NCBI GenBank assembly: GCA_964618935.1
Contig: CAZUDL010000001.1
Coordinates: 66,562 to 130,561, forward strand
From: an uncultured Actinomycetes bacterium
Lineage (GTDB): Bacteria; Chloroflexota; Dormibacteria; Aeolococcales; Aeolococcaceae
Length of the DNA: 64,000 nt
Direction of reading: 5' to 3'
Shown one piece after another: positions 15,940 through 29,955 of the stretch. Position numbers and translations under genes: made by a program. Positions within the stretch are counted from its first letter, which is position 1; every line of letters starts with the position of its first letter. The notes under the pieces were generated by a model. That model was not told where the DNA came from, did not search any database, and saw nothing but the letters and a program-made list of their open reading frames with translations.

Positions 15940-18810
15940 CTAGCGAATGTCCCGGCCCTCGTCGCAGATGGTGCGGAACTCGCAGCGCCGGCACCGGTAG
16001 CTGCTCGGCTTGGGTGGGAAAGCTCCCTCCTGGTGGGCGGCGGCGAGGTCGGCGATGGACCGGTCCACGTGGACGAAGAACCTCTGCAGGGACCGGTTGT
16101 CGAAGGTGAGCCGGGTGGTTTCGGCGGTCTGGAGCCAGTGCAGCTCGACGGTCGCGGTGTCGCTGTGGCGTTCACGCGCCATGGCCACGGCGTAGGCGCG
16201 GACCTGGAGGTCGCGCTGCAGCTCCTCCTCGCCGCGGGGCGGCCCGGTCTTGTAGTCGACCACGACGCGCCCGCCGTCCTCCCCGCCCTCGTCGATGCGG
16301 TCGAAGCGGCCGGTGAGGTCGCCGGCCCCGACGCTGAGGACGAAGGACTGCTCGACACTGGCGATCCTCGCCAGGAGCCATCCCGGCGAGGCGACGTAGC
16401 GGCGCAGCTGGCTCTCGCCCAGGCTGCGCAGCTCGGGTCGGGCCCCCTTGGGACCCCGCGCCGACGCCCAGGCGTCGTTCCAGAGCCGCGCGGCACCGTC
16501 GGGATCGGGGTCCACGCCGCTCTGGCGCTGCGCGGCCAGCGCCTGCAGGACGCTGTGCATGAGGGTCCCGTACCACTGCTGCGGCGACTGCGGCACCGGC
16601 AGCTGGTAGAGGCTGCGGTAGGCGTAGCGGCGCGGGCATTCGCGGAAGGCGGCCAGGTCGGAGACCGACGCCCGGACGGCCGCCGGTGGCACCCCGAGCA
16701 GCTCCGGCGCGCGCCGCGGCGCGGGCGGCTGGGCACCCTCGATGTGGCGCCGCAGCACCGACGCCTGGGCATCCAGGCCGGCCAGGAACTGGCTGCGCCG
16801 CTCGTCGCGGAAGGAATGCTGGTAGCGCCGCGCGTGGACGAAGACGAGACGGTCCCGGGCCCGCGTCGCGGCCACGTAGAAGAGGCGGCGCTCCTCGTCG
16901 CGGCTGGCCTCCCCCTCCGGTGCCGGCTCGGGGACCAGCTCGTCGGGGAGGGACAGCCGCGCGCTGAAGCCGCCCGAGCCCGGCCAGCGCTCCTCGCTGC
17001 AGCGGGCGAGGAAGACGACCGGCCACTCCAGGCCCTTGGCGGCGTGCGCGGTCAACAGGTTGATGCCGGGGGTCGCCGACTCCACCGCGGCGATCTCGTC
17101 GGCCGCCTGGCTGTTGCGCAGCACCTCCAGGTAGCGCAGCGCCAGCGCCAGGCTGCGGTCGTCGCTCCAGTCGGAGAAGTCCTCGAGGAGCTCGCCGAAC
17201 TTGTTGAGGTTGGCGCCGATCTGACGCTGCTCCTGGGCGCCGGCGGCGTCGAGCACGCCGAGGAACTCGCTCATCTCCAGCACGGCGTAGAAGAGGTCGC
17301 GGACGTCCTCGCGGGCGGCCTGGCCGTGCAGCTCGACGAGGGCGTCGATGAAGCGCCCGGCCCCCGCGGCGTCCGCCTCGCTCAGCTCCGGCATCCCCGC
17401 GGTGATCACCGAGGCGAGGGGGATGTCGTGGTCGTGGGCGGCCCGGGTCAGGGCGAGGCGGCCGGCCCCGCTCACCGAGAAGGCGGGCAGGTGGAGGCAG
17501 CGCAGCACCGCCGGGGAGTCGTCCGGGTCCAGCACGGCGCCCAGCAGCGCCATCAGATCCTTGATCTCCCGGCACTGGAAGAAACCCCGGCCGCCGCGGA
17601 CGGTGTAGGCGACCCCCGCCTCCTGGAGGGCCCGCGTCGCCGACTGCATGTCCTCATGGCGGCGGAACAGCCAGGCGATGGCGCCGGGATCCGTGCCCCG
17701 GGCGATGAGGTCGCGGCACTCCCGCGCCACCTCGACGGCCTCGCCTCGCTCGTCCTCGGCGTGCCAGATCTCTACCGCGCCGCCGTCACCGCGGACGGCG
17801 AGCAGGTGCTTGTCGATGCGCGATCCCGGCGCCGCCGCCTCGATGATCGCCCGGCTGGCATCGACGATCTCGCGATAGGAGCGGTAGTTGCGGTCCAGGA
17901 CGATCTTCTCGTGCTGCGGGTAGATGCGCTCGAAGCGGTCCAGGTTGGCCAGCGACGCCCCACGGAACTTGTAGATGGACTGGTCGTCGTCGGCGACGAC
18001 GAGGAGGTTGCCGCGCTCGCCCACCAGCCGCTCGACGAGGCGGGCCTGGGCGTAGTTGGTGTCCTGGTACTCGTCCACCATGACGAAGTCGAGCGAGCCC
18101 GCCACCGCCTCACGGACGTCGGGGTGATCCTGGAGGAGCCGGGCGGCGTGGAGGATGGTGTCGTCGTGGTCGAGGATGCCGCGCCGGGTGAAGCGCTCCT
18201 GCAGGCGGCGGTACACCTCGGCGCATTCCCGGTGGCGGAGCAGCAGCTCGCGCTGCGCCGCGTCCTCGGTGGCATCCGCCCGCGCCTGCGCCCAGGCCGC
18301 GTAGTCCTCGGGTGACACCAGCTCCTGCTTCGCCTTCTCGATGACGTCGAGGATGGCGCCGATGAGGTCCTGGGGCCGCAGCGGGTTGTAGAGGGTGACG
18401 GGACGCAGCTCGGCGAGGATGGCGTCCACGACCAGCCAGCGCTCCGCCTCGTCGGCGATGCGGAAGGCCGGGGAAATGCCGAGTCGCCAGCCCCAGCGGC
18501 GGACCACGCGCTGGGCGAAGGTGTGGTAGTTGGTGAGCGGCGTCTCGCCCTCGAAGGCGCCGTGGATGCGCTCCACCCGGTCGTGCATCTCGTCGGCGGC
18601 CTTCCTCGTGTAGGTGAGCACGAGCAGGCGCTCCGGCGGGGTGCCCTCGCCGACCAGGCGGAGGAAGCGCTCGACGATGACCCTGGTCTTGCCCGAACCG
18701 GGGCCGGCGAGGACCAGGCAGGGCCCCTCCCCGTGCTCGACGGCTCGGCGCTGGGGCGGGTCGAGCAGGGACTCGGGCACGTCTGGCATGATACCTGCCT
18801 GCTCGTACAT
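15940..18810 (-). CDS. UvrD/PcrA-family SF1 helicase fused to a C-terminal PD-(D/E)XK (RecB/Cas4-like) nuclease with Cys cluster; AdnAB/AddAB-like single subunit
   Basis: Helicase motifs I (LAGPGSGKT), II (VMVDEYQDTN) and III (VVADDDQSIYKFRGAS). C-terminal RecB-nuclease motif VVVDYKTG and Cys cluster C..(AFRECPRRY)...CRRCEFRTIC. The ORF extends to 18897. The likely start is M at 18810 or M at 18789 (MPDVPESLLDPPQRRAV...). Confidence 0.8.
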   Translation of the reverse strand: MYEQAGIMPDVPESLLDPPQRRAVEHGEGPCLVLAGPGSGKTRVIVERFLRLVGEGTPPERLLVLTYTRKAADEMHDRVERIHGAFEGETPLTNYHTFAQRVVRRWGWRLGISPAFRIADEAERWLVVDAILAELRPVTLYNPLRPQDLIGAILDVIEKAKQELVSPEDYAAWAQARADATEDAAQRELLLRHRECAEVYRRLQERFTRRGILDHDDTILHAARLLQDHPDVREAVAGSLDFVMVDEYQDTNYAQARLVERLVGERGNLLVVADDDQSIYKFRGASLANLDRFERIYPQHEKIVLDRNYRSYREIVDASRAIIEAAAPGSRIDKHLLAVRGDGGAVEIWHAEDERGEAVEVARECRDLIARGTDPGAIAWLFRRHEDMQSATRALQEAGVAYTVRGGRGFFQCREIKDLMALLGAVLDPDDSPAVLRCLHLPAFSVSGAGRLALTRAAHDHDIPLASVITAGMPELSEADAAGAGRFIDALVELHGQAAREDVRDLFYAVLEMSEFLGVLDAAGAQEQRQIGANLNKFGELLEDFSDWSDDRSLALALRYLEVLRNSQAADEIAAVESATPGINLLTAHAAKGLEWPVVFLARCSEERWPGSGGFSARLSLPDELVPEPAPEGEASRDEERRLFYVAATRARDRLVFVHARRYQHSFRDERRSQFLAGLDAQASVLRRHIEGAQPPAPRRAPELLGVPPAAVRASVSDLAAFRECPRRYAYRSLYQLPVPQSPQQWYGTLMHSVLQALAAQRQSGVDPDPDGAARLWNDAWASARGPKGARPELRSLGESQLRRYVASPGWLLARIASVEQSFVLSVGAGDLTGRFDRIDEGGEDGGRVVVDYKTGPPRGEEELQRDLQVRAYAVAMARERHSDTATVELHWLQTAETTRLTFDNRSLQRFFVHVDRSIADLAAAHQEGAFPPKPSSYRCRRCEFRTICDEGRDIR

Positions 18811-18945
18811 GCGTTTGCCGCCTGCGCTTCCGCTGGCAGCCTGTTCGGGGCCTGGTAGAGTGGACGCCCTGACAGCCCTGCCGGGCGGTCGGAACACGGT
18901 CGATCATGCCGCCGACGGCGGCGCCAAGGAGGTGATCCCTCAGAC

Positions 18946-19737: not shown

Positions 19738-20328
19738 GTGGCCAGCCTCGTCATCGGCCTGGGCAATCCCGGGGGCGAGTACGCCCACACCAGGCACAAT
19801 GCCGGCTGGATGGTCCTCGACGAGATGGAGCGCCGGGGCCGGTTCGGTGGGGCGCGGCGGGAGGGACCGGCCAGGCTGCGCGAGGGCTCCATCGAGGGCG
19901 TCGAGGTGGTCCTCGCCCGTCCCCAGACGTTCATGAACCTGAGTGGCCGGGCCGGCGTCCACCTGGTGCGCGTCCTCGGGCTCCCCGTCTCCGAGGTGGT
20001 GGTGGTCCACGACGACGTGGACATCGCCTTCGGGAGGCTGCGCCTGCGGCGCGGCGGCTCCGCGGGTGGCAACCGCGGGGTCCGGTCCCTCATCGACTCC
20101 TGGAGGACCCCCGACTTCATCCGCGTCCGCGTCGGCATCGGCCGCCCCGCCGAGGGGGAGGACACCGTCGACCACGTCCTCGACACCTTCGCCCCCGTCG
20201 AGCGCCGCGCCCTGCCCGCCATCCTCGGCCGGGCCGCCGACGCCACCATCGCCATCGTGCGCGACGGGCTGGAGCTCGCCATGGGGGAGTACAACCGCGC
20301 CGTCCCCCTGGATCCGCCCGGTGGCTGA
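19738..20328 (+). CDS. pth: Peptidyl-tRNA hydrolase
   Basis: GTG start. VASLVIGLGNPGGEYAHTRHNAGWMVLDE...FMNLSGRAG is the Pth signature. Confidence 0.85.
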   Translation: MASLVIGLGNPGGEYAHTRHNAGWMVLDEMERRGRFGGARREGPARLREGSIEGVEVVLARPQTFMNLSGRAGVHLVRVLGLPVSEVVVVHDDVDIAFGRLRLRRGGSAGGNRGVRSLIDSWRTPDFIRVRVGIGRPAEGEDTVDHVLDTFAPVERRALPAILGRAADATIAIVRDGLELAMGEYNRAVPLDPPGG

Positions 20329-23300
20329 GGCTCCGACCCTTTCGTCGAGCCTGGATTGGGCCCCCGAGTTGGGACGCCTTCTCGACGGCTCCCTGCGCCG
20401 CCTCGGCGGCGTGCCCGGCGGCGCGGTGGGCGTCATCGCCTCCTGGCTCCTGGGGCGCGCCGGGCGGCATGTCCTCGTCATCGCCTCCGACCCCGAGGCG
20501 GTGTACGGCGACGCCCGCCTCTGGGGCGGCGAGGAGCGCCTCGCGCTGTGGCCCGCGGCGGACACGCCCGGTTTCGACAGGGTGCCGCCGTCGGAGGAGG
20601 TGACCCGGCGGCGCATCGCCACCCTGGGCATGCTGGCGCAGGGCGAGCCGGCGCTGGTGGTCGCCTCCCCGGCCGGGTTGCTTCGCCCCACGCTCCCCGT
20701 CGCCGCCGGCGGCGACCTGGAGCTGAGCCCGGGTCGCCGGGCCGGCCGCGACGCCGTCCTCCGCCGGCTGGTTGCCCTCGGCTACCGGCGGGTGACGGCG
20801 GTGACGGCGGCGGGGGAGATGGCGGTGCGCGGCGGCATCCTCGACGTCTTCGGCCTCGAGCGCTCCCGCCCCTGGCGCGTCGAGTGGTCCGGCGACGAGA
20901 TCGACGAGATTCGGCTCTTCGACGTCGAGAGCCAGACCTCCGTGGCCCGGCTGGACTCGGTCCGCATCCTCCCCGCCCGCGAGCTCGACCTCAGCCCCGA
21001 GGCGGTCCGCCGCGCCCTCGCCGCGGTCGACGGGCTGGACGTCTCCGCCTGCCGGCCGGAGGTGCGCCAGCAGTGGGAGACCGACCGCGCCCAGCTCGCC
21101 CTTGGCGTCTACGACGAGGGCGTCGACGTCTTCGCCCCCTACCTCATGGGGGGGACGACCCTCTTCGACCATCTGGGCGAGGGGGCCGTGGTGCTCGTCG
21201 CCGGCGGCGCGGGCCGGGCCCGGCGCGCCGCCGCGCGCCACGCCGACGAGATCGAGGCCCTCCGGGAGCAGGAGCAGGCCAGGGGCGAGCTCCCCACCGG
21301 GGCGCGCAGCGGCCTGCTCGACCCCGCCGCCCTCGACCCCCACCTGGAGCGTGCCGTCGAATTGGTGCCCGAAGCGGTGGAGGGGCCCCTGTCCGCGGAT
21401 CTCGGCTGGCAGGCCGCGGAGGCCCACGCCGGGCGCTGGGAGGCGTTCGCGGCGGCGGTGCGGCCCCAGCTCGCGGCCGGCGGCTGCGTCGTCGTCATCT
21501 CGCGCCAGGAGCGGCGCGTGGCGGAGCTGGCGGCGGACTTCGAGCTGGCCGTCATCAGCGTCGACGACCCGGACGCCTCCACCCTTCCCATCGCGCCGGG
21601 CGCGCTGGTGATCGGCGCCGGGGAGGTCTCCTCCGGCTTCCGCGCCCCCCGGCTCGGCATCTCGGTGGTCAGCGACCACGAGCTCTTCGGCGCCGTCAAG
21701 CGGCGCGGCTCCCCGCTCGCCCGCGGGGCGCGGCGGGCGGAGTCCACCTCGGCCCGGGGGGCACGGCAGGCGGCGGCCGGTCGCGCCGGCGCCAAGGACT
21801 TCGTCATCCAGTTCTCACCCGGCGAGCTGGTGGTGCACCGCGACCACGGCATCGGCCGCTTCCTGGAGATGCGGCGCGTCGCCGAGACGGAGGAGCCCGA
21901 ACCGGGGCGCCCCGCCGCCGACGGCGACGGGAGCGGGGCCGGCGGGGAGGGCGCGCGCACCGAGCACGAGTACATGGTCCTGGAGTACGCCGACTCCGAC
22001 CGCCTCTTCGTCCCCGTCGAACATCTGGACAGGATTGACAGATACGTGGGGGGCTCGGACTCCCATCCCGGCCTCTCCCACCTCGGCACCGGCGAGTGGG
22101 AGCGGACGAGACGGCGGGTCAAGGAGCGCACCGAGGAGGTGGCCCGGGAGCTGCTCGGCCTCTACTCCCGCCGGGAGATGGCCCAGGGACACGCCTACGC
22201 GCCGGACTCGGACTGGCAGCGCGAGCTGGAGGCCGCCTTCCCCTTCGAGGAGACCCCGGACCAGGAGCTGGTGCTGGAGGAGATCAAGCGCGACATGGAG
22301 GCGACCCGGCCCATGGACCGCGTGGTGTGCGGCGACGTCGGCTTCGGCAAGACGGAGCTGGCGCTGCGCGCCGCCTTCAAGGCGGTCACCGAGGGCCGCC
22401 AGGTGGCCGTGCTGGTGCCCACCACCGTGCTCTGCCAGCAGCACGTCCTCACCTTCTCGGAGCGGCTGCGCCCCTTCCCCGTCACGGTGCGCCAGCTGTC
22501 GCGCTTCTCCACGGAGGAGGAGCAGCGCTCCACCATCCTCGGCCTGAAGACCGGCGCCGTCGACATCGTCATCGGCACCCACCGCCTGCTCCAGCACGAC
22601 GTCGAGTTCCGCAACCTCGGCCTCGTCGTCATCGACGAGGAGCAGCGCTTCGGCGTGCTGCAGAAGGAGCGCTTCAAGGAGCTGCGCGTCGCCGTCGACC
22701 TGCTCTCCCTGTCGGCGACGCCCATCCCCCGCACCCTGCACATGTCGCTGGCGGGCATCCGGGACCTCTCGGTGATCCAGACCCCTCCGGAGGAGAGGCA
22801 ACCCATCAAGACCTACGTCACCGCCCGCGACGACGGCCTGGTCCGGGAGGTGGTCAGCCGCGAGCTGGCCCGCGGCGGCCAGGTGTTCTATGTCCACAAC
22901 CGGGTGCAGACCATCGAGCAGGAGGCGGGCCGGTTGCGGGCGCTGGTCCCCGAGGCCCGCGTCGCCATCGCCCACGGGCAGATGCACGAGAGCCTGCTCG
23001 CCGAGGTGATGCGGGCCTTCATCGACTCCGAGATCGACGTGCTGGTGTGCACCACCATCATCGAGTCCGGTCTCGACATCCCCAACGCCAACACCATCGT
23101 GGTCAACGACGCCCACCGCCTCGGCCTGGCCCAGCTCTACCAGCTGCGCGGCCGCGTCGGGCGCGCCGGCCAGCGCGCCTACGCCTACTTCCTCTATCCC
23201 GGCGGACGGACACTGACGGAGCGCGCCGACAAGCGGCTGGAGGTGGTCAGCGAGCTGCAGGACCTCGGGGCGGGCTTCCGCCTGGCGATGCGCGACCTGG

Positions 23301-23938
23301 AGATCCGCGGTGCCGGCAACCTCCTCGGCGAGGAGCAGCACGGGGAGATCGCGGCCGTGGGCATGGAGATGTACACGCACCTCCTGGCGACCGCGGTGCG
23401 CGCCCTCCAGGGCCAGCCCGTTGTCGAGGCGCCCGCCCACGTCAGCGTCTCGCTGCCCCAGCCCGCCTTCCTGCCCGCCGGCTACGTGGAGGAGGAGCGG
23501 CTGCGGCTCCGCTGCTACCAGGAGCTGGCCGCCTGCGCCACCGAGGCGGAGCTGGAGCGCCAGGAGCGGGGCCTCGCCGACCGCTTCGGGACCCTGCCGG
23601 TGGAGGCGAGGGCACTGGTCTACTCGCTGCGGGTGCGCATCCTCGCCGCCCAGGCCGGGGTGACCTCGGTGGAGACGTGGCGGGGCGCCGGCCGTCCCGG
23701 CGCCGGCGCGGGCGCCGCCCGCTCCCCGGGAGCGGTGATCCAGCTCTCCGGGGCCCACGGCTTCGACCTGGAGGCGGTGGCCCGCCAGGCGCGCGGCTAC
23801 GTCACCACGTCGCCGAGCCGGCTCTACGTCGTGCCGCCGCCCGGGCGCGGCGTGGACCCGGAATGGCAGGATGTCCTCCTGCGCGTCCTGCGCGAGCTGG
23901 GGAGGCTCGTCCGCGCGCGTCAACTGGTGCCCGCATGA
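20321..23938 (+). CDS. mfd: Transcription-repair coupling factor Mfd
   Basis: About 1200 aa. UvrB-interaction-like N-terminus. RNAP-interacting and helicase domains (motif I GDVGFGKTE, DEAD-box-like VVIDEEQRFG, TRG motif). The likely GTG start at 20321 overlaps the pth stop. The ORF track's 19943 start is an upstream extension. Confidence 0.85.
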   Translation: MAEAPTLSSSLDWAPELGRLLDGSLRRLGGVPGGAVGVIASWLLGRAGRHVLVIASDPEAVYGDARLWGGEERLALWPAADTPGFDRVPPSEEVTRRRIATLGMLAQGEPALVVASPAGLLRPTLPVAAGGDLELSPGRRAGRDAVLRRLVALGYRRVTAVTAAGEMAVRGGILDVFGLERSRPWRVEWSGDEIDEIRLFDVESQTSVARLDSVRILPARELDLSPEAVRRALAAVDGLDVSACRPEVRQQWETDRAQLALGVYDEGVDVFAPYLMGGTTLFDHLGEGAVVLVAGGAGRARRAAARHADEIEALREQEQARGELPTGARSGLLDPAALDPHLERAVELVPEAVEGPLSADLGWQAAEAHAGRWEAFAAAVRPQLAAGGCVVVISRQERRVAELAADFELAVISVDDPDASTLPIAPGALVIGAGEVSSGFRAPRLGISVVSDHELFGAVKRRGSPLARGARRAESTSARGARQAAAGRAGAKDFVIQFSPGELVVHRDHGIGRFLEMRRVAETEEPEPGRPAADGDGSGAGGEGARTEHEYMVLEYADSDRLFVPVEHLDRIDRYVGGSDSHPGLSHLGTGEWERTRRRVKERTEEVARELLGLYSRREMAQGHAYAPDSDWQRELEAAFPFEETPDQELVLEEIKRDMEATRPMDRVVCGDVGFGKTELALRAAFKAVTEGRQVAVLVPTTVLCQQHVLTFSERLRPFPVTVRQLSRFSTEEEQRSTILGLKTGAVDIVIGTHRLLQHDVEFRNLGLVVIDEEQRFGVLQKERFKELRVAVDLLSLSATPIPRTLHMSLAGIRDLSVIQTPPEERQPIKTYVTARDDGLVREVVSRELARGGQVFYVHNRVQTIEQEAGRLRALVPEARVAIAHGQMHESLLAEVMRAFIDSEIDVLVCTTIIESGLDIPNANTIVVNDAHRLGLAQLYQLRGRVGRAGQRAYAYFLYPGGRTLTERADKRLEVVSELQDLGAGFRLAMRDLEIRGAGNLLGEEQHGEIAAVGMEMYTHLLATAVRALQGQPVVEAPAHVSVSLPQPAFLPAGYVEEERLRLRCYQELAACATEAELERQERGLADRFGTLPVEARALVYSLRVRILAAQAGVTSVETWRGAGRPGAGAGAARSPGAVIQLSGAHGFDLEAVARQARGYVTTSPSRLYVVPPPGRGVDPEWQDVLLRVLRELGRLVRARQLVPA

Positions 23939-23953
23939 GGAGGCCGCGGCCGG

Positions 23954-24850
23954 ATGCGTGACGAGGCGGCGCAGTCGCTGCGCCAGCTCAACGAGGTCGT
24001 CGAGCGCTTGCGAGCGCCCGGCGGCTGCCCCTGGGACGGTGTGCAGACCCATCGGACCCTCCGCCCCTACCTCCTGGAGGAGACCTACGAGCTCCTCGAG
24101 GCCATCGAAACCGGAGAGTCGCCGACCCTGCGCGAGGAGCTGGGCGACCTCCTCCTGCAGGTGCTCATGCACTGCGCGATCGCCGCCGAGGCCCCCGACG
24201 CGTTCGACATCGGCGACGTCGCCGAGACCACCCGGGCCAAGATGATCCACCGCCACCCCCACGTCTTCGGCGACACCTCCGTCAGCGGCGCCGCCCAGGT
24301 GGTCGTCAACTGGGAGAGGCTGAAGCGCGTCGAGAAGAAGGAGCGCCTCTCCCTCCTCGAGGGGGTGCCGAAGGCGCTGCCCGCCCTCGCCTATGCCCAG
24401 GGGGTGCAGAAGCGGCCGGCCCGCGTCGGCTTCGACGAGAGCCCGAGCGTCGCCGACGCCCTTGGCCGGGTCCGGGCCGGGGTCGACGCCGTCGCCGCGG
24501 TGGCGGCCGCCTCACCCGTCCGGGCGGAGAGGGGAGAGGACTGGGCACCGGCGGAGACCGCGAAGGGCTCCCCGGCGGTGGTTCCCGCGGGCCTCGCCCC
24601 CGACGAGCACGTGCCCCCGCCGCCCCCGCCGCCGGCCGAGGTCGAGGCGGTGATCGGCGAGCTCCTCTTCGCCACCGTGTCGCTGGCGCGGCAGCTCCGC
24701 GTCAACCCCGAGGACGCCCTGCGGGGACGGGCGACGCTCTTCGCCGACCGCTTCCGCCGCCTCGAGGCGTCGGCGCGCGCCGAGGGCGTCGACCTGCACG
24801 ACGTGGACGCCGACTCGTGGCGCGCCCGCTGGGAGGCGACCGCCGTCTGA
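23954..24850 (+). CDS. mazG: Nucleoside triphosphate pyrophosphohydrolase MazG
   Basis: CPWDGVQTHRTLRPYLLEETYELLEAIE...IHRHPHVFG is the MazG EEXXE-type signature. C-terminal Pro-rich region, then a second MazG-like helix. Confidence 0.8.
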   Translation: MRDEAAQSLRQLNEVVERLRAPGGCPWDGVQTHRTLRPYLLEETYELLEAIETGESPTLREELGDLLLQVLMHCAIAAEAPDAFDIGDVAETTRAKMIHRHPHVFGDTSVSGAAQVVVNWERLKRVEKKERLSLLEGVPKALPALAYAQGVQKRPARVGFDESPSVADALGRVRAGVDAVAAVAAASPVRAERGEDWAPAETAKGSPAVVPAGLAPDEHVPPPPPPPAEVEAVIGELLFATVSLARQLRVNPEDALRGRATLFADRFRRLEASARAEGVDLHDVDADSWRARWEATAV

Positions 24851-24987
24851 CCGCGCGGGGGCGGGGCTCCCCCGATCCGCCGGCCTCCCGGCCCGAGCCT
24901 CGGGGCCCGGATCGACGGTCGTCCTATTCCTCTATGATCGGCGGCGATCTGGCGGCGGGATGCCGCGGTGGAAAGGGAGCAATCGTG

Positions 24988-26421
24988 ATGGGTCGACGCA
25001 CCTGGCTCAGCAGCTGCTGGATTGCCGCGGCCGCCCTGGGTGTCACCGCCCTCCTCGGGGCCACCGGCGTCGGGGCCACGACGAGCGGCTCCCCCACCGG
25101 GACGCCGACCCCGACCCCCTCGGCCACCAGCTGGTCGATCGTGACCTCGCCCAACGACGGCACCGACTCGAACGCCCTCGCCGGGGTGGCCTGCGCGTCC
25201 GCGGACCTGTGCTGGGCGGTCGGCTTCTACTACGACGACACCAGCAATCTGGACCAGACGCTGATCGAGGAGTGGGACGGCACCTCGTGGAGCCTCGTCA
25301 CCTCGCCGAACGGGAGCTTCGCCGACACGGACGCCTACAGCTACCTCACCGGGGTGGCGTGCGCCTCGGCGACGCTCTGCTGGGCGGTCGGCTACTACTC
25401 CGGGGACTACCAGCAGACGCTGGTCGAGGAGTGGGACGGGAGCGGGACCACGTGGAACGTCGTCTCCTCGCCGGATGCCGGCTCCTTCGACGACCAGCTC
25501 AACGGCGTGACCTGCGCCTCGTCCACCGAGTGCTGGGCGGTCGGCACCTACCTGGGCAGCGACGAGGGCCAGGACATCCTCATCGAGGGGTGGGACGGGA
25601 CCTCGTGGACCCTCAACGTCCCCGCGGCCGACTCCGAGACCGACAGCGCGCCCGGCGTTCTCGGCGGCGTGGCGTGCGCCGGTGCGGACGACTGCTGGGC
25701 GGCCGGCTACAGCACCGGTGACTTCGATCAGACGCTCATCGAGGGCTGGGACGGGACCTCGTGGAGCCCCGCTGCGTCCCCCGACAGCGGCACCTCCGAC
25801 AACGACCTGTACGGCGTGACCTGCGCCTCGTCCACCGAGTGCTGGGCGGTCGGCGACTACATCGGCAGTGATGAGGGCCCGCACATCCTCATCCTCGGCC
25901 TGGTGAGCGGTTCGTGGACCACCAGCGTCGGCGGCTACGTCGAGACGGAGAGCGCCGCCGGGTACCTCTACGGGGTGGCCTGCGCCACCGCCGGCGAGTG
26001 CTGGGCGGTGGGCCGGGCCACGGACGGTGACGGCTACGATCAGGTCATCACCGAGGAATGGACCGGGACGTCGTGGAGCTCCGTCGCAGCGCCGGACAGC
26101 TCCACCCCCGACACGCCCTACAGCGGCGACGTGAACAACGCGCTGGTGGCGGCGGCGTGCGTCCCCGCCGCGGAGTGCTTCGCCGTCGGCTTCTACGGGT
26201 ACGAGGCCGATCCCACCTTGATCGAGGAGTACCCGGCGGCTGCCGCGGCCACGCCCACCCCGGCGACCGTCCCCGTGCCGAACACGGGGGCGCTGGCGGG
26301 ATCGCCGTGGCCGGCCGGAATCGTCGCCGCCGTGCTCGGCGTCCTGCTCGCCGGCACCGCCGTGGCATGGCGCCGGCGGGGGCCGGCCGGATCGCCGGAC
26401 AGGTCGCGCATCGAGATCTGA
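24988..26421 (+). CDS. Secreted, probably sortase-anchored surface protein built from seven ~50-aa Cys-pair repeats (possible beta-propeller)
   Basis: ATG at 24988 with GAAAGGGAG RBS. Signal peptide MGRRTWLSSCWIAAAALGVTALLGATGVGA. Seven repeats of consensus SW(S/T)xV.SP....L.GV(A/T)CAS...CWAVG.Y.......QTLIEEWDGT. The C-terminal VPNTG is followed by a hydrophobic stretch and WRRRG, which looks like a cell-wall sorting signal. Confidence 0.7.
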   Translation: MGRRTWLSSCWIAAAALGVTALLGATGVGATTSGSPTGTPTPTPSATSWSIVTSPNDGTDSNALAGVACASADLCWAVGFYYDDTSNLDQTLIEEWDGTSWSLVTSPNGSFADTDAYSYLTGVACASATLCWAVGYYSGDYQQTLVEEWDGSGTTWNVVSSPDAGSFDDQLNGVTCASSTECWAVGTYLGSDEGQDILIEGWDGTSWTLNVPAADSETDSAPGVLGGVACAGADDCWAAGYSTGDFDQTLIEGWDGTSWSPAASPDSGTSDNDLYGVTCASSTECWAVGDYIGSDEGPHILILGLVSGSWTTSVGGYVETESAAGYLYGVACATAGECWAVGRATDGDGYDQVITEEWTGTSWSSVAAPDSSTPDTPYSGDVNNALVAAACVPAAECFAVGFYGYEADPTLIEEYPAAAAATPTPATVPVPNTGALAGSPWPAGIVAAVLGVLLAGTAVAWRRRGPAGSPDRSRIEI

Positions 26422-26424
26422 CCC

Positions 26425-26441
26425 GCGGCCCGCCGGGCCGC
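26425..26441 (+). terminator. GC hairpin after the repeat-protein gene
   Basis: GCGGCCCG-cc-GGGCCGC, with no U-tract (common in high-GC genomes). Confidence 0.3.
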
Positions 26442-26526
26442 CCAACCCCATTGCGCATTCCGCGGTGGCGGTTCAGACTAACCCACGCCCCACGGCCAGT
26501 CCCCCCCACGTCACCCAAGGGCCGTC

Positions 26527-26964: not shown

Positions 26965-27024
26965 GGGCGCGTCCTGGGCCCCGGGCCCCTGCTCGATGGC
27001 GCGCCCGGTGCGGTATGCTCCTCC

Positions 27025-27099
27025 GGCGGCGTGGAGCAGTGGAAGCTCGTCGGGCTCATAACCCGAAGGTCGCTGGTTCGAATCCAGCCGCCGCAACCA
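27025..27099 (+). tRNA. tRNA-Met (CAT), initiator-type features
   Basis: Cloverleaf with anticodon loop CTCATAA. Three consecutive G:C pairs at the base of the anticodon stem (GGG/CCC). A 1:72 G.A mismatch. T-loop TTCGAAT. CCA encoded. Confidence 0.8.
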
Positions 27100-27164
27100 C
27101 TCCTCCCCCCTGCGTCGGTGCCGATGTCGTCGCTGTCCGGCATCCGGCCCCCGGCGCTTCCTCC

Positions 27165-27237
27165 GGCGGTATAGCTCAGGTGGTAGAGCGCCCGGCTCAT
27201 ACCCGGTATGTCCCTGGTTCGACCCCAGGTACCGCCA
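27165..27237 (+). tRNA. tRNA with CAT anticodon, either elongator Met or Ile2 (lysidine, LAU)
   Basis: Acceptor ggcggta/taccgcc fully paired. D-arm GCTC/GAGC. Anticodon loop CTCATAC. T-loop TTCGACC. Discriminator A. No CCA encoded. Lies immediately upstream of tilS. Confidence 0.8.
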
Positions 27238-27251
27238 CGTGGGCCCGGCAG

Positions 27252-28046
27252 TTGCCTCCGGGCGAGCGGGTCGCCGCCGTCGGCCGGCTCCGCCGCGCCG
27301 TCGCCTCCGCCGCCGATCGGCGCGACGTCATCCGCCCCGGCGAGACGGTGGTGGTGGCCTGCAGCGGGGGGCCGGATTCGACCGCCCTCGTCGATGCCGT
27401 GGCCCGGCTGGCGCCGCCCCGCGGCTGGCGCCTTCACGTCGTCCACGTCGACCATGGGCTGCGGCCCGGGTCGGCTGCCGAGGCGGGACCGGTCGCCGCC
27501 CTGGCCGCCCGGCTCGGCCTCGGTTTCGAGGCGGTGAGGGTCGAGGTCGAGAGCGGCCCCTCCATTCAGGACCAGGCCCGCCGGGCCCGTCACGCCGGGC
27601 TCGCGGCGGTCGCCGACCGGCTCGGCGCCACCGCCATCGCGCTGGGCCACACCGCCGACGACCAGGCGGAGACGGTCCTGATGCGCCTCCTCACCAGCGC
27701 CACCCCCTGGAGCCTGCGGGCGATGGCGGAGCGCGAGGGTAGGCTGGCCCGCCCGCTTCTCCGCGTCTGGCGCCAGGCGACCCTGGACTACTGCGCGGCC
27801 CTCGGTCTCGAGCCGATCGACGACCCGAGCAACCGCGATCCCCGCTTCCTGCGCAGCCGGGTGCGCCACGAGCTCCTGCCGGCGCTGGAGGAGGTCTTCC
27901 CGGGCGCGCGCCGGCGGCTGGCCACCCTGGCGCTGCGGCAGCGCAGCCTCCTGGAAGAAGGTGGCGGGGCCGGACCCGCAGCAACCGGGAACAAGGCTGT
28001 CACTCCACGATCGCGCCTCCCGCGCAGTTCGGAGCCCCTGCTATAG
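27252..28046 (+). CDS. tilS: tRNA(Ile)-lysidine synthetase TilS (short form)
   Basis: PP-loop motif [41 protein letters not shown]. The TTG start at 27252 is uncertain. The track's long ORF from 27015 runs through the tRNAs and is not real upstream of about 27240. Confidence 0.75.
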
Positions 28047-28056
28047 ACTGGCTCGG

Positions 28057-29955
28057 ATGCGCAACTCTCGGCGCCCCTTCTCCTGGATGCTCGGCGTGCT
28101 CCTGGTCGTGGTCGTCCTGCTGGTCTTCTACGGGCGCTCCGGCCCCGCCTCGACCACCGAGACGAGCGGCCAGCTGCAGGCGGCGGTCACCCTCTGGGAG
28201 AGCAACCACACCGCACCCCAGGCCATCTCCAACAGCAAGAGCGACCAGACCCAGATCAGCAGCGACGGGAGTACGGTCACCTGGTATGACAATGCGGGGA
28301 GCCTCTACACCACCACCATCGGCGACAGCGACCAGGCCACCACAGAGTTCAGAACGGCCGGCTACAACAACTATCAAGTTGACGAGAGCAGCTTGTCCGA
28401 CATCCTGATCAGCCTCCTGCCGACGCTCGTGCTCGTCGGGATCATGGTGTTCTTCGTCTGGTGGATGCTCCGCCAGAGCCAGTCGGGCAACAACCAGGCG
28501 ATGTCCTTCGGCCGCAGCCGGGCCCGGCTGCTCGCCGGTGACAAGCCGTCGGTCACCTTCTTGGACGTCGCCGGGGTCGACGAGGCCAAGCAGGAGCTGG
28601 GCGAGATCGTCGAGTTCCTCAAGTACCCGGACAAGTTCACCGCCGTGGGAGCCCGCATCCCCAAGGGCGTCCTCCTCGTCGGCCCGCCCGGCACCGGCAA
28701 GACGCTGCTCTCCAAGGCCGTCGCCGGCGAGGCGGGCGTGCCCTTCTTCAGCATCTCCGGGTCGGAGTTCGTCGAGATGTTCGTCGGTGTCGGCGCCAGC
28801 CGCGTCCGCGATCTCTTCGACCAGGCAAAGAAGAACTCGCCGTGCATCGTCTTCGTCGACGAGATCGACGCGGTGGGCCGCCAGCGCGGCGCCGGCGTCG
28901 GCGGCGGCCACGACGAGCGCGAGCAGACCCTGAACCAGCTGCTCGTCGAGATGGACGGTTTCGAGACGTCGGTGCACGTCATCGTCATCGCCGCCACCAA
29001 CCGTCCCGACGTCCTCGACCCCGCGCTGCTCCGGCCCGGCCGATTCGACCGGCATGTGATGCTGGATCGCTCCGACATCCGCGGCCGACGCGCCATCCTC
29101 GAGGTCCACGCCCGCAACAAGCCGCTCGACCCCAGCGTGGACCTGCAGGTGCTGGCCAAGCAGACCCCCGGCTTCTCCGGCGCCGACCTCGCCAACCTCA
29201 TCAACGAGGCGGCCATCCTCACCGCGCGCCAGAACCGCAAGCTCATCGGCATGCCGCAGCTGGAGGAGGCGATCGCGCGCGTCATCGCCGGGCCGGAGCG
29301 CAGCAGCCGGATGATCAGCGAGAAGGAGAAGTCCACCATCGCCTACCACGAGATGGGCCACGCATTGGTCGGCATCACGCTGGAGCACACCGACCCGGTG
29401 CACAAGGTCTCCATCGTCAGCCGCGGCATGGCTCTGGGGTGGACGCTGTCGCTGCCCACCGAGGACAAGTACCTGGTGAGCAAGGCGGAGCTGGTCGACC
29501 AGCTGGCCCAGATCCTGGGCGGCCGCTGCGCCGAGGACCTCATCCTCGGCGAGGCCAACATCACGACCGGCGCCAGCGACGACATCCGCAAGGCGACCGA
29601 CCTGGCCCGCAAGATGGTCACCGAGTGGGGCATGAGCGAGAAGCTCGGCCCGCGCACCTTCGGCGAGCGTCAGGAGATGGTCTTCCTGGGTCGCGACCTG
29701 GGGGAGCAGCGCAACTACTCCGAGGACGTCGCCTCCGAGATCGACCAGGAGGTGCACCACCTGGTCGAATCGGCCTTCCTGCGTGCCAAGGGCGTGCTCC
29801 GCGAGCGCGAGAAGGTGCTCCGGGCCCTCGCCGCCCGCCTCACCGAGGTGGAGACGATGGAGGCCGCGGAGATGCACAAGCTCATCGCCGAGGTCGAGGG
29901 CAGGAAGGAGGCCCCTGGCGAGGTCGCGGCCGGGACGGTCGCCGTCGGCGGCTGA
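28057..29955 (+). CDS. ftsH: ATP-dependent zinc metalloprotease FtsH
   Basis: ATG at 28057 ([22 protein letters not shown]). Two TM helices. AAA+ Walker [19 protein letters not shown] zinc motif. Confidence 0.9.

Follow-up and report, generated by a model that had tools for sequence, protein, structure and literature searches.

The structure closest to the protein described here is the C-terminal propeller of CylK (PDB 7RON/7ROO), a cyanobacterial Friedel-Crafts alkylating enzyme whose active site is built jointly by the propeller and an N-terminal Ca2+-binding beta-roll, with Arg105, Tyr473 and Asp440 as catalytic residues (PMC8916777). The two proteins share the fold at only 9-10% sequence identity, and structural comparison with Foldseek also finds similarity to the Asp-box propellers, represented by Ycf48/HCF136 (2XBG), the GH74 xyloglucanases, the Vps10 propeller of sortilin and the sialidases. 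With the LPXTG/NPXTG sortase-anchored proteins, the protein shares a signal peptide, a passenger, a Pro/Thr linker, an xPxTG motif, a hydrophobic helix and a basic tail. The gene that encodes it lies on the plus strand at 24988..26421 of a 64,000-nucleotide stretch of DNA (the window, from contig CAZUDL010000001.1 of assembly GCA_964618935.1) from an uncultured peat-soil bacterium, Candidatus Dormibacteria. The reading that we favor, with moderate confidence, is that the product is an exported, anchored, disulfide-stapled seven-bladed propeller serving as a non-catalytic surface binding or adhesion module, and that its gene is an accessory insertion between mazG and divIC.

The coding sequence is complete, with 477 codons and a stop, and runs from an ATG at 24988 to a TGA at 26419-26421. 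A Shine-Dalgarno-like GGAAAGGGAG is situated 8-10 nt 5′ of the start codon, and an in-frame GTG at 24985 offers an alternative start. The GC content at the three codon positions is 0.60/0.62/0.95, and the third-position value (GC3) matches those of mazG, divIC, mfd and ftsH (0.94-0.96), which argues that the propeller gene is not a recent foreign import. A long antisense open reading frame (ORF; 24391-26451, 686 aa) was rejected as an artefact of the 75% GC DNA, and because its GC3 is only 0.69, as against 0.95, we take the plus frame as the coding strand. The product is identical to P0001, a 477-aa 'hypothetical protein ABSA40_06065 [Candidatus Dormibacteria bacterium]' from a metagenome-assembled genome (MAG) at NCBI, and its sequence is present on at least 14 metagenomic contigs.

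The greater part of the protein (aa 48-416; 25129..26235) is composed of seven tandem units of 51-55 aa (∼52 aa, mean pairwise identity 44%), which occupy aa 48-100 (25129-25287), 101-155 (25288-25452), 156-206 (25453-25605), 207-258 (25606-25761), 259-309 (25762-25914), 310-362 (25915-26073) and 363-416 (26074-26235). The repetition is detectable in the DNA too, as six copies with 62-73% identity, and a hidden Markov model built from the repeats recognizes exactly seven units in this protein and either seven or 14 in most homologs; the seven-repeat ORF at 24988-26421 is thus confirmed as real, far beyond chance. All seven units contain the motif C-x5-C-[WF]-A-[VA]-G, and W[DT]G[TS]..W is found at five of the six inter-repeat junctions, with the junction between repeats 5 and 6 reading LVSGSW.

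The paired cysteines (C69/C75, C125/C131, C176/C182, C230/C236, C279/C285, C332/C338 and C391/C397) span 25192..26178, and each pair flanks a hairpin between the 'GV.C.S' and 'CWAVG' strands, with strands on either side in the structural model described below. Among 1389 blades from 120 homologs, both cysteines are present in 1197, neither in 188, and a single one in only 4. Because the two are nearly always either both present or both absent, an intra-blade disulfide, one per blade, is probable. The first-pass annotation, made from the sequence alone, had described seven Cys-pair repeats and a probable intra-repeat disulfide; the pairs are found in all seven units, and the co-occurrence in homologs agrees with the bond.

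A structural model was built with AlphaFold2 (AF2) on an alignment of 32 homologs, giving a predicted template modeling score of 0.77 and a per-residue confidence (predicted local distance difference test, pLDDT) above 90 for most blade segments. It contains 28 strands in seven groups of four, of which the last group is three-stranded (383-391, 397-404, 410-415), and a short N-terminal strand (50-52) lies ahead of blade 1. We are confident in the predicted fold, a seven-bladed beta-propeller with seven four-stranded antiparallel sheets in a ring, and by strand order the modeled ring is closed by a classical 1+3 velcro. Foldseek returns CylK as its top match (1.7e-13), and CylK is also the best match in the other fold search; it is followed in Foldseek by Ycf48 (2.4e-10), GH74 (8e-8), sortilin (3e-7) and sialidase (2e-6), with Kelch and DAIP structures further down the list. 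A seven-bladed propeller with a velcro closure had been anticipated from the repeats, and the model and the fold searches agree on it. The resemblance to Asp-box propellers that had also been proposed holds only insofar as Ycf48, GH74, sortilin and the sialidases rank next after CylK.

The strand order of the model also suggests how each blade is put together. Because a two-residue turn cannot bridge blades, the DG hairpin ('..TLIEEW-DG-TSWSLV..') would connect strands 3 and 4 of a single structural blade, which is the Asp-box position, and the Cys pair would bracket the hairpin of strands 1 and 2 ('GVACAS-ADL-CWAVG'). These two hairpins are predicted to lie on a common face of the disc, leaving the opposite face to two long, weakly conserved loops (SPN......N.L and Y......Q) that are rich in Asp, Ser, Thr and Tyr. 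The conservation profile of the family, 'WsIV.SPN......N.L.GVtC.SAsdCWAVG.y......qTLIEhWnGt', contains two low-conservation stretches. In propellers generally, the usual ligand-binding face is the 'top' face.

Neither Pfam nor NCBIfam has a model that covers the repeat. A Pfam search with the whole protein gives only a sub-threshold match to DUF6087 (26.0 bits, cut-off 27.1) over 14 residues around WDGTSW, and an NCBIfam search gives no match. Against PDB sequences, a phmmer search with the window protein and a search with a family profile (alignment A1) together return only a non-significant match to SAKe2BE (E 0.26, in the phmmer search) and dockerin tails that the homologs contribute, so that neither finds a relative of solved structure. 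The earlier view that the repeat is not a named family therefore stands, and none of the well-described families against which it was to be judged (PD40, Kelch or BNR) is matched in profile searches.

The family itself is very large. A phmmer comparison with 1.84 billion cluster representatives (clusters at 50% identity) yields 27,971 matches at E<=1e-3, 19,381 at E<=1e-10 and 7,184 at E<=1e-30, and 1865 of 8000 candidates scored are matches. The number of blades in 120 homologs has modes at 14 (60 proteins) and seven (29 proteins). With seven blade matches, paired cysteines and a signal-like N-terminus, the window protein is, by its sequence, a clear member of this huge metagenomic repeat family that is without a curated Pfam or NCBIfam model. 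Those members that carry a taxonomic label come from Dormibacteria, Acidimicrobiales and Actinomycetota, with one from a Verrucomicrobiota MAG. Many homologs begin with a hydrophobic, signal-peptide-like segment, and the multidomain homologs combine the propeller with dockerin, SLH, WxL, TIG, FN3, He_PIG, Big_6/9/13, PKD, cadherin-like and InlB B-repeat domains or with a second (SBBP) propeller; no catalytic partner domain was found among them. Homologs that lack the cysteines touch PF12768, the Rax2 propeller.

Two features of individual homologs may be recorded here. An N-terminal motif, SQSGIFNPRVLLAFxLCSVGxLLAMxSLA, precedes the propeller in many of them (P0005, P0044, P0048, P0100, P0118 and others) and is absent from the window protein, and PF28238 is listed among the precomputed Pfam hits of P0005.

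It is tempting to go further, and we do so only tentatively. These extracellular propellers of seven or 14 blades, which make up 28,000 or more clusters (50% identity) and lack a studied member, could be a major surface recognition module of Terrabacteria in soil (Dormibacteria, Acidimicrobiia and others) that has so far escaped notice. In them, one disulfide per blade and an Asp-box-like hairpin of reduced length would provide a rigid scaffold for hypervariable top-face loops, and some lineages would anchor the module by an undescribed VP-x-x-[G/P] signal.

The propeller is flanked by segments that bear on export and attachment. The first 30 residues (24988..25077) comprise MGRR, a hydrophobic core and GVGA, with a maximum Kyte-Doolittle 19-mer value of 1.79 at aa 10-28 and a low-pLDDT helix at 8-23 in the AF2 model; the segment is conserved in P0004 and P0097. 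It looks like a Sec-type signal that would be cleaved after A30. Two other readings of this segment were discarded: a twin-arginine translocation signal (RRTWLS), for which there is no model match and for which P0097 has AR in place of RR, and a lipoprotein signal (LSSC), which also matches no model and in which the Cys lies ahead of the hydrophobic core. A Pro/Thr-rich linker (aa 31-47; 25078..25128; pLDDT <50) leads into the propeller. At the other end, an Ala/Pro/Thr linker of low pLDDT (aa 417-427; 26236..26268) is followed by the candidate sorting or cleavage motif VPVPNTG (aa 428-434; 26269..26289), a hydrophobic membrane segment (aa 435-461; 26290..26370) with a Kyte-Doolittle 19-mer value of 2.14 at aa 443-461 and an AF2 helix at 445-455, and a basic stop-transfer RRRG with a short cytoplasmic tail (aa 462-477; 26371..26418).

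This tail is certainly a predicted membrane anchor, and its tripartite layout, VPNTG (430-434), 27 hydrophobic residues and RRRG (462-465) with the end at 477, is that of a sorting signal. The first-pass annotation placed the signal peptide, VPNTG, the hydrophobic helix and the basic end where we find them, and it called the whole a sortase signal; the layout is compatible with this, and formal prediction does not support it, since the whole protein matches none of the NCBIfam sorting-signal models and the isolated tail scores below the cut-off of every model.

There are alternatives to plain membrane anchoring. It is conceivable, if rather doubtful, that a Dormibacteria sortase cuts VPNT|G and joins the propeller to peptidoglycan by a covalent bond, as originally proposed. 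In addition to the tripartite architecture, among curated models the isolated tail best matches a sortase-type anchor model, NF033846 (Rumino_NPXTG; 17.5-20.1 bits, with E 5.7e-4 at 20.1 bits), and LPXTG_double and TIGR01167 (LPXTG_anchor; 9.3 bits) are among its weaker matches, but all of these scores fall under the curated cut-offs (23.5 for NF033846 and 15.9 for TIGR01167). VPNTG is shared unchanged by the window protein, P0004 and L088, and in Firmicutes sortases accept [LIV]PxTG variants, VPPTG and IPNTG among them. The Thr of an xPxTG motif is normally needed by sortases, however, and this scissile residue is replaced by Ser in the ortholog P0097 (VPVPPSG; 49% identical) and in L101 (VPVPESG; L101:1-1410; 39% identical). 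Because these two have SG, the conserved feature of the tail is VPVPx[ST]G and not xPxTG; it is kept across three lineages whose propellers are 39-49% identical.

In favor of a sortase, Chloroflexota-related bacteria are regarded as monoderm (PMC10608941). Against it, the PGAP annotation of the protein is simply 'hypothetical', no sortase or exosortase gene and no TLxTC-containing ORF is seen in the 64-kb window by regular-expression (regex) searches, and scanning 1.06 Mb of Dormibacteria DNA by regex reveals no other convincing tail with an LPXTG-like motif, transmembrane (TM) segment and RR. The DNA covered, in which no sortase gene was located, comprised 64 kb of this genome and loci of ±10 kb. 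A database search with the 52-aa tail gives just five candidates and one fragment of the same protein and is uninformative, and nothing relevant was found in the literature on a Dormibacteria sortase, exosortase or envelope, or on the repeat itself.

Less probable still is that the tail is a divergent exosortase or archaeosortase signal, PEP-CTERM-like or VPDSG-like, and not of the LPXTG type. Other anchored members of the family (P0039, P0043, P0109, P0111, P0123, P0200 and L101) end in VP[ED]x[PG], a hydrophobic helix and an Arg cluster, the motifs being VVPESP, VVPEAP, VPEFP, EVPDTP, AVPDAP, VIPEAP and VPVPESG, and VPVPNTG of the window protein aligns with them. The PExPT-CTERM/XrtJ target model finds a weak match in the P0043 tail (18.1 bits, cut-off 40) and the tail of the window protein reaches 10.2 bits with PEP_CTERM (cut-off 16), but these scores are lower than those of the sortase type, the VPDSG-CTERM model is not matched by the isolated tail, and the search of the window just mentioned showed no exosortase gene. 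Exosortases, moreover, occur mostly in diderm bacteria. The VP[ED]x[PG] tails resemble PEP-CTERM signals, do not pass any curated model and may represent an undescribed class of sorting signal.

Returning to the anchored binding propeller as the reading that we favor, the protein would operate as follows. In a presumably monoderm, Chloroflexota-related Dormibacteria host it would be exported to the cell surface with removal of the Sec-type signal peptide, and the Pro/Thr linker would lead to a rigid seven-bladed propeller in which the N-terminal strand completes the last blade as the 1+3 velcro. Each blade would be stapled by one disulfide across the hairpin of strands 1 and 2 and by the tight W-D-G-x-x-W hairpin between its last two strands, placing the conserved motifs on one face and the variable Asp/Ser/Thr/Tyr-rich loops on the opposite, 'top' face. 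The second linker together with VPVPNTG, the hydrophobic helix and RRRG would then retain the propeller at the membrane or in the wall; the tail could be no more than a C-terminal membrane anchor, or it could be a signal cut by a sorting enzyme. There the propeller would most likely function as a non-catalytic binding or adhesion module for a glycan, a cation or a surface, with its specificity residing in the variable loops.

A surface binding module with lineage-specific loops is the most likely role as judged from the sequences. The strongly conserved residues (W, C, C, G and WDG) are structural and are repeated in every blade, with no blade-specific polar constellation, and since they are the same in each blade they argue against a single active site. 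The homologs carry signal peptides and fuse only to surface and adhesion modules, suggesting an extracellular and non-enzymatic context. Several observations nonetheless weigh against the proposal as a whole. The geometry of the putative disulfides and the assignment of faces are drawn from strand order; the sub-threshold tail scores, the variable Thr and the failure of the regex search of the window to show a sorting-enzyme gene detract from anchoring by a sorting signal; and the mature propeller (aa 48-416) is extremely acidic, with 57 Asp and Glu residues, one Arg, one His and no Lys, which could point to a cation-binding or structural role in the wall over specific ligand recognition. The presence of enzymes among the structural neighbors also makes a catalytic role conceivable.

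Such a role would make the propeller a glycoside hydrolase or lyase of the GH74, sialidase or Vgb type, or a CylK-like alkylating enzyme, and we consider this improbable. CylK, Vgb lyase, the GH74 xyloglucanases and the sialidases are indeed all found among the structural neighbors, but at just 9-15% sequence identity, and the protein matches no enzyme family in Pfam or NCBIfam. CylK's N-terminal Ca-binding domain and Arg105 are missing here, strong conservation is confined to the structural blade residues, and the fusions within the family are restricted to adhesion and anchor modules.

The genomic position of the gene bears on its origin. The neighboring genes are, in order, a uvrD-like gene (on the minus strand), ybeY, pth, mfd, mazG, the propeller gene, divIC, two tRNAs with CAU anticodons, tilS, ftsH, panB, panC, panD and nadB. 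In a synteny sample obtained by a MazG scan of GTDB species representatives, which gave 80 loci, nearly all labeled Dormibacteria, divIC follows mazG after about 100-170 nt in most species. Only one GTDB representative, L088, has an ortholog of the gene in this slot, and 12.9 kb of its DNA aligns collinearly with the window at 87.6% nt identity; the L088 gene (L088:7003-8482) is frameshifted and split into two frames, reflecting either an indel error in a long-read MAG or a pseudogene. The P0097 lineage (L001-L004 and L092) also carries a propeller gene in the slot, and its nearest relatives L018, L031 and L087 (Mfd 86-90% identical) are without it. Elsewhere the slot contains a HAD-type hydrolase (L019, L026), a small TM protein (L017) or a small lipoprotein with an LAGCGG lipobox (L024, L030 and possibly L018).

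The sequences on either side of the gene differ in their conservation. The intergenic region upstream of it, after the mazG stop (24851..24987), is conserved with L088 only (alignment A2), whereas the region 3′ of it (26422..26526) aligns with the mazG-divIC spacers of L012, L013 and L021 in the same alignment; since these spacers are gene-less, divIC has kept its own 5′ region. Consensus scans found no sigma-70-type promoter and no terminator in this 75% GC DNA, and no direct or inverted repeats flank the gene as the mark of a mobile element. The propeller gene is a patchy accessory insertion, outside the conserved mfd-mazG-divIC-tRNA-tilS-ftsH backbone.

Further members of the family, 33-35% identical, predicted to be secreted and with no C-terminal anchor, are located just after divIC-tRNA-Met in four other loci (L065:3002-4990, L073:6142-7482, L075:7094-8788 and L091:7794-8738) and on the opposite strand in a fifth (L040:7620-8861(-)). 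The divIC/tRNA-Met neighborhood thus hosts propeller genes repeatedly, either as an insertion hot spot or by local rearrangement.

The first-pass annotation had inferred that this gene displaces enolase, on the basis of the order mfd-mazG-(lipoprotein)-eno-ftsB. That order, mfd-mazG-lpqU-eno-ftsB in M. tuberculosis (Rv1020-Rv1024), is actinobacterial. The genome, however, is that of a Candidatus Dormibacteria and not an actinobacterium, and neither of the enolase signatures PS00164 and SHRSGE[TS]ED occurs in any of the 92 sequences (the window and 91 fetched loci). Because mazG and divIC are adjacent in most species and no enolase signature is seen, the gene is an accessory insertion and not an enolase replacement. 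In Bacillus subtilis the genes between mazG and divIC are yabO, yabP and yabQ; what the slot contains varies among Terrabacteria, and here no gene has been displaced. That the protein is a cell-division or wall-growth factor coupled to DivIC/FtsB, or replaces a slot gene such as enolase, is very improbable: its gene lies directly 5′ of divIC in two lineages and anchor-less members lie near divIC-tRNA-Met, but 78 of the 80 Dormibacteria species have the slot without the gene, divIC retains its own upstream region, the slot's other occupants are unrelated in type, no enolase signature is found, and clustering beside the tRNAs fits an insertion hot spot equally well.

A shorter form of the protein and several features of the surrounding DNA were also noted. 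P0003, from a metagenomic contig of 1367 bp, is a 374-aa five-blade version of the window protein that is without blades 4-5, and its junction falls inside an identical CASSTECWAVG-coding stretch of blades 3 and 5 (window 25507-25545 and 25816-25854); it is either a recombinational variant in the population or a collapse of short-read assembly, and a five-blade product could not close the same ring. Divergence changes stepwise at the tRNA genes (window 26997-29955 compared with 19751-24843), such that mfd-mazG-divIC is 71-78% identical in nucleotides to L017, L012 and L013, and tRNA-tilS-ftsH 89-93%, with a TilS protein that is 100% identical to that of L017. Such a step points to recombination among Dormibacteria species, with the exchange located at the tRNA-Met/divIC junction or close to it.

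The two CAU-anticodon tRNAs are directly 5′ of tilS (27025-27099 and 27165-27238). The first is initiator-like, with a GGG/CCC anticodon stem and a 1x72 mismatch, and the second could be an elongator tRNA-Met or a tRNA-Ile2, the TilS substrate. A mechanically called ORF at 27015-28046 runs through both tRNAs, and the true tilS start is therefore nearer 27219 or later. On the minus strand, 15940-18897 encodes a large UvrD/PcrA-type helicase with a C-terminal PD-(D/E)XK nuclease domain (AddA/AdnB-like), which is divergent from ybeY-pth-mfd and has the same position in the related contig L003.

Dormibacteria are abundant uncultured bacteria of soil and peat whose surface biology is little known, and this gene supplies a confidently modeled surface protein. 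Its clean signature of paired cysteines and a WDG hairpin is not described in current domain databases, and with a curated model tens of thousands of proteins now called 'hypothetical' could be annotated. Variable loops on a disulfide-stapled scaffold could plausibly serve in adhesion or as a lectin, and the scaffold might prove useful for its stability. The gene tells us nothing about glycolysis, enolase or cell division and its product has an ordinary fold, so that its main value is as a pointer to a family without a curated model and to the surface biology of Dormibacteria; otherwise its interest is modest.

When these features are set beside the systems introduced at the outset, several differences are seen. 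In the window protein nothing but a signal peptide and a linker lies ahead of the propeller, with no Ca-binding beta-roll as in CylK, and CylK has neither reported Cys pairs nor the combination of signal and anchor. The Asp-box propellers appear to share with it the order of blades and the position of the tight D-G...W hairpin, but its hairpin, x-W-D-G-[TS]-x-W, is one residue shorter than the Asp-box S-x-D-x-G-x-T-W, the probable per-blade disulfide is not a known feature of the Asp-box families, and the BNR, BNR_2, PSII_BNR and Sortilin-Vps10 models of Pfam (PF02012, PF13088, PF14870, PF15902) give no match at E<=10. The short 'WDGxxW' hairpin is common to the window protein and to DUF2510 (PF10708) and DUF6087 (PF19565), models that cover neither the blade, the Cys pair nor the propeller; multi-blade homologs pass their gathering scores through summed weak matches, and the window protein is below membership in both, with 7.1 bits for DUF2510 and the DUF6087 score given above. 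With the Kelch propellers, the designer SAKe proteins and Rax2 (PF12768), the links are the non-significant SAKe2BE sequence match and the appearance of Kelch structures in Foldseek; Kelch propellers are mostly six-bladed and have other blade signatures. In comparison with the LPXTG/NPXTG proteins, the tail lies under all curated thresholds and the Thr varies in related tails. The protein would work like other surface-displayed propeller binding modules, with a sequence of its own on an ordinary fold.

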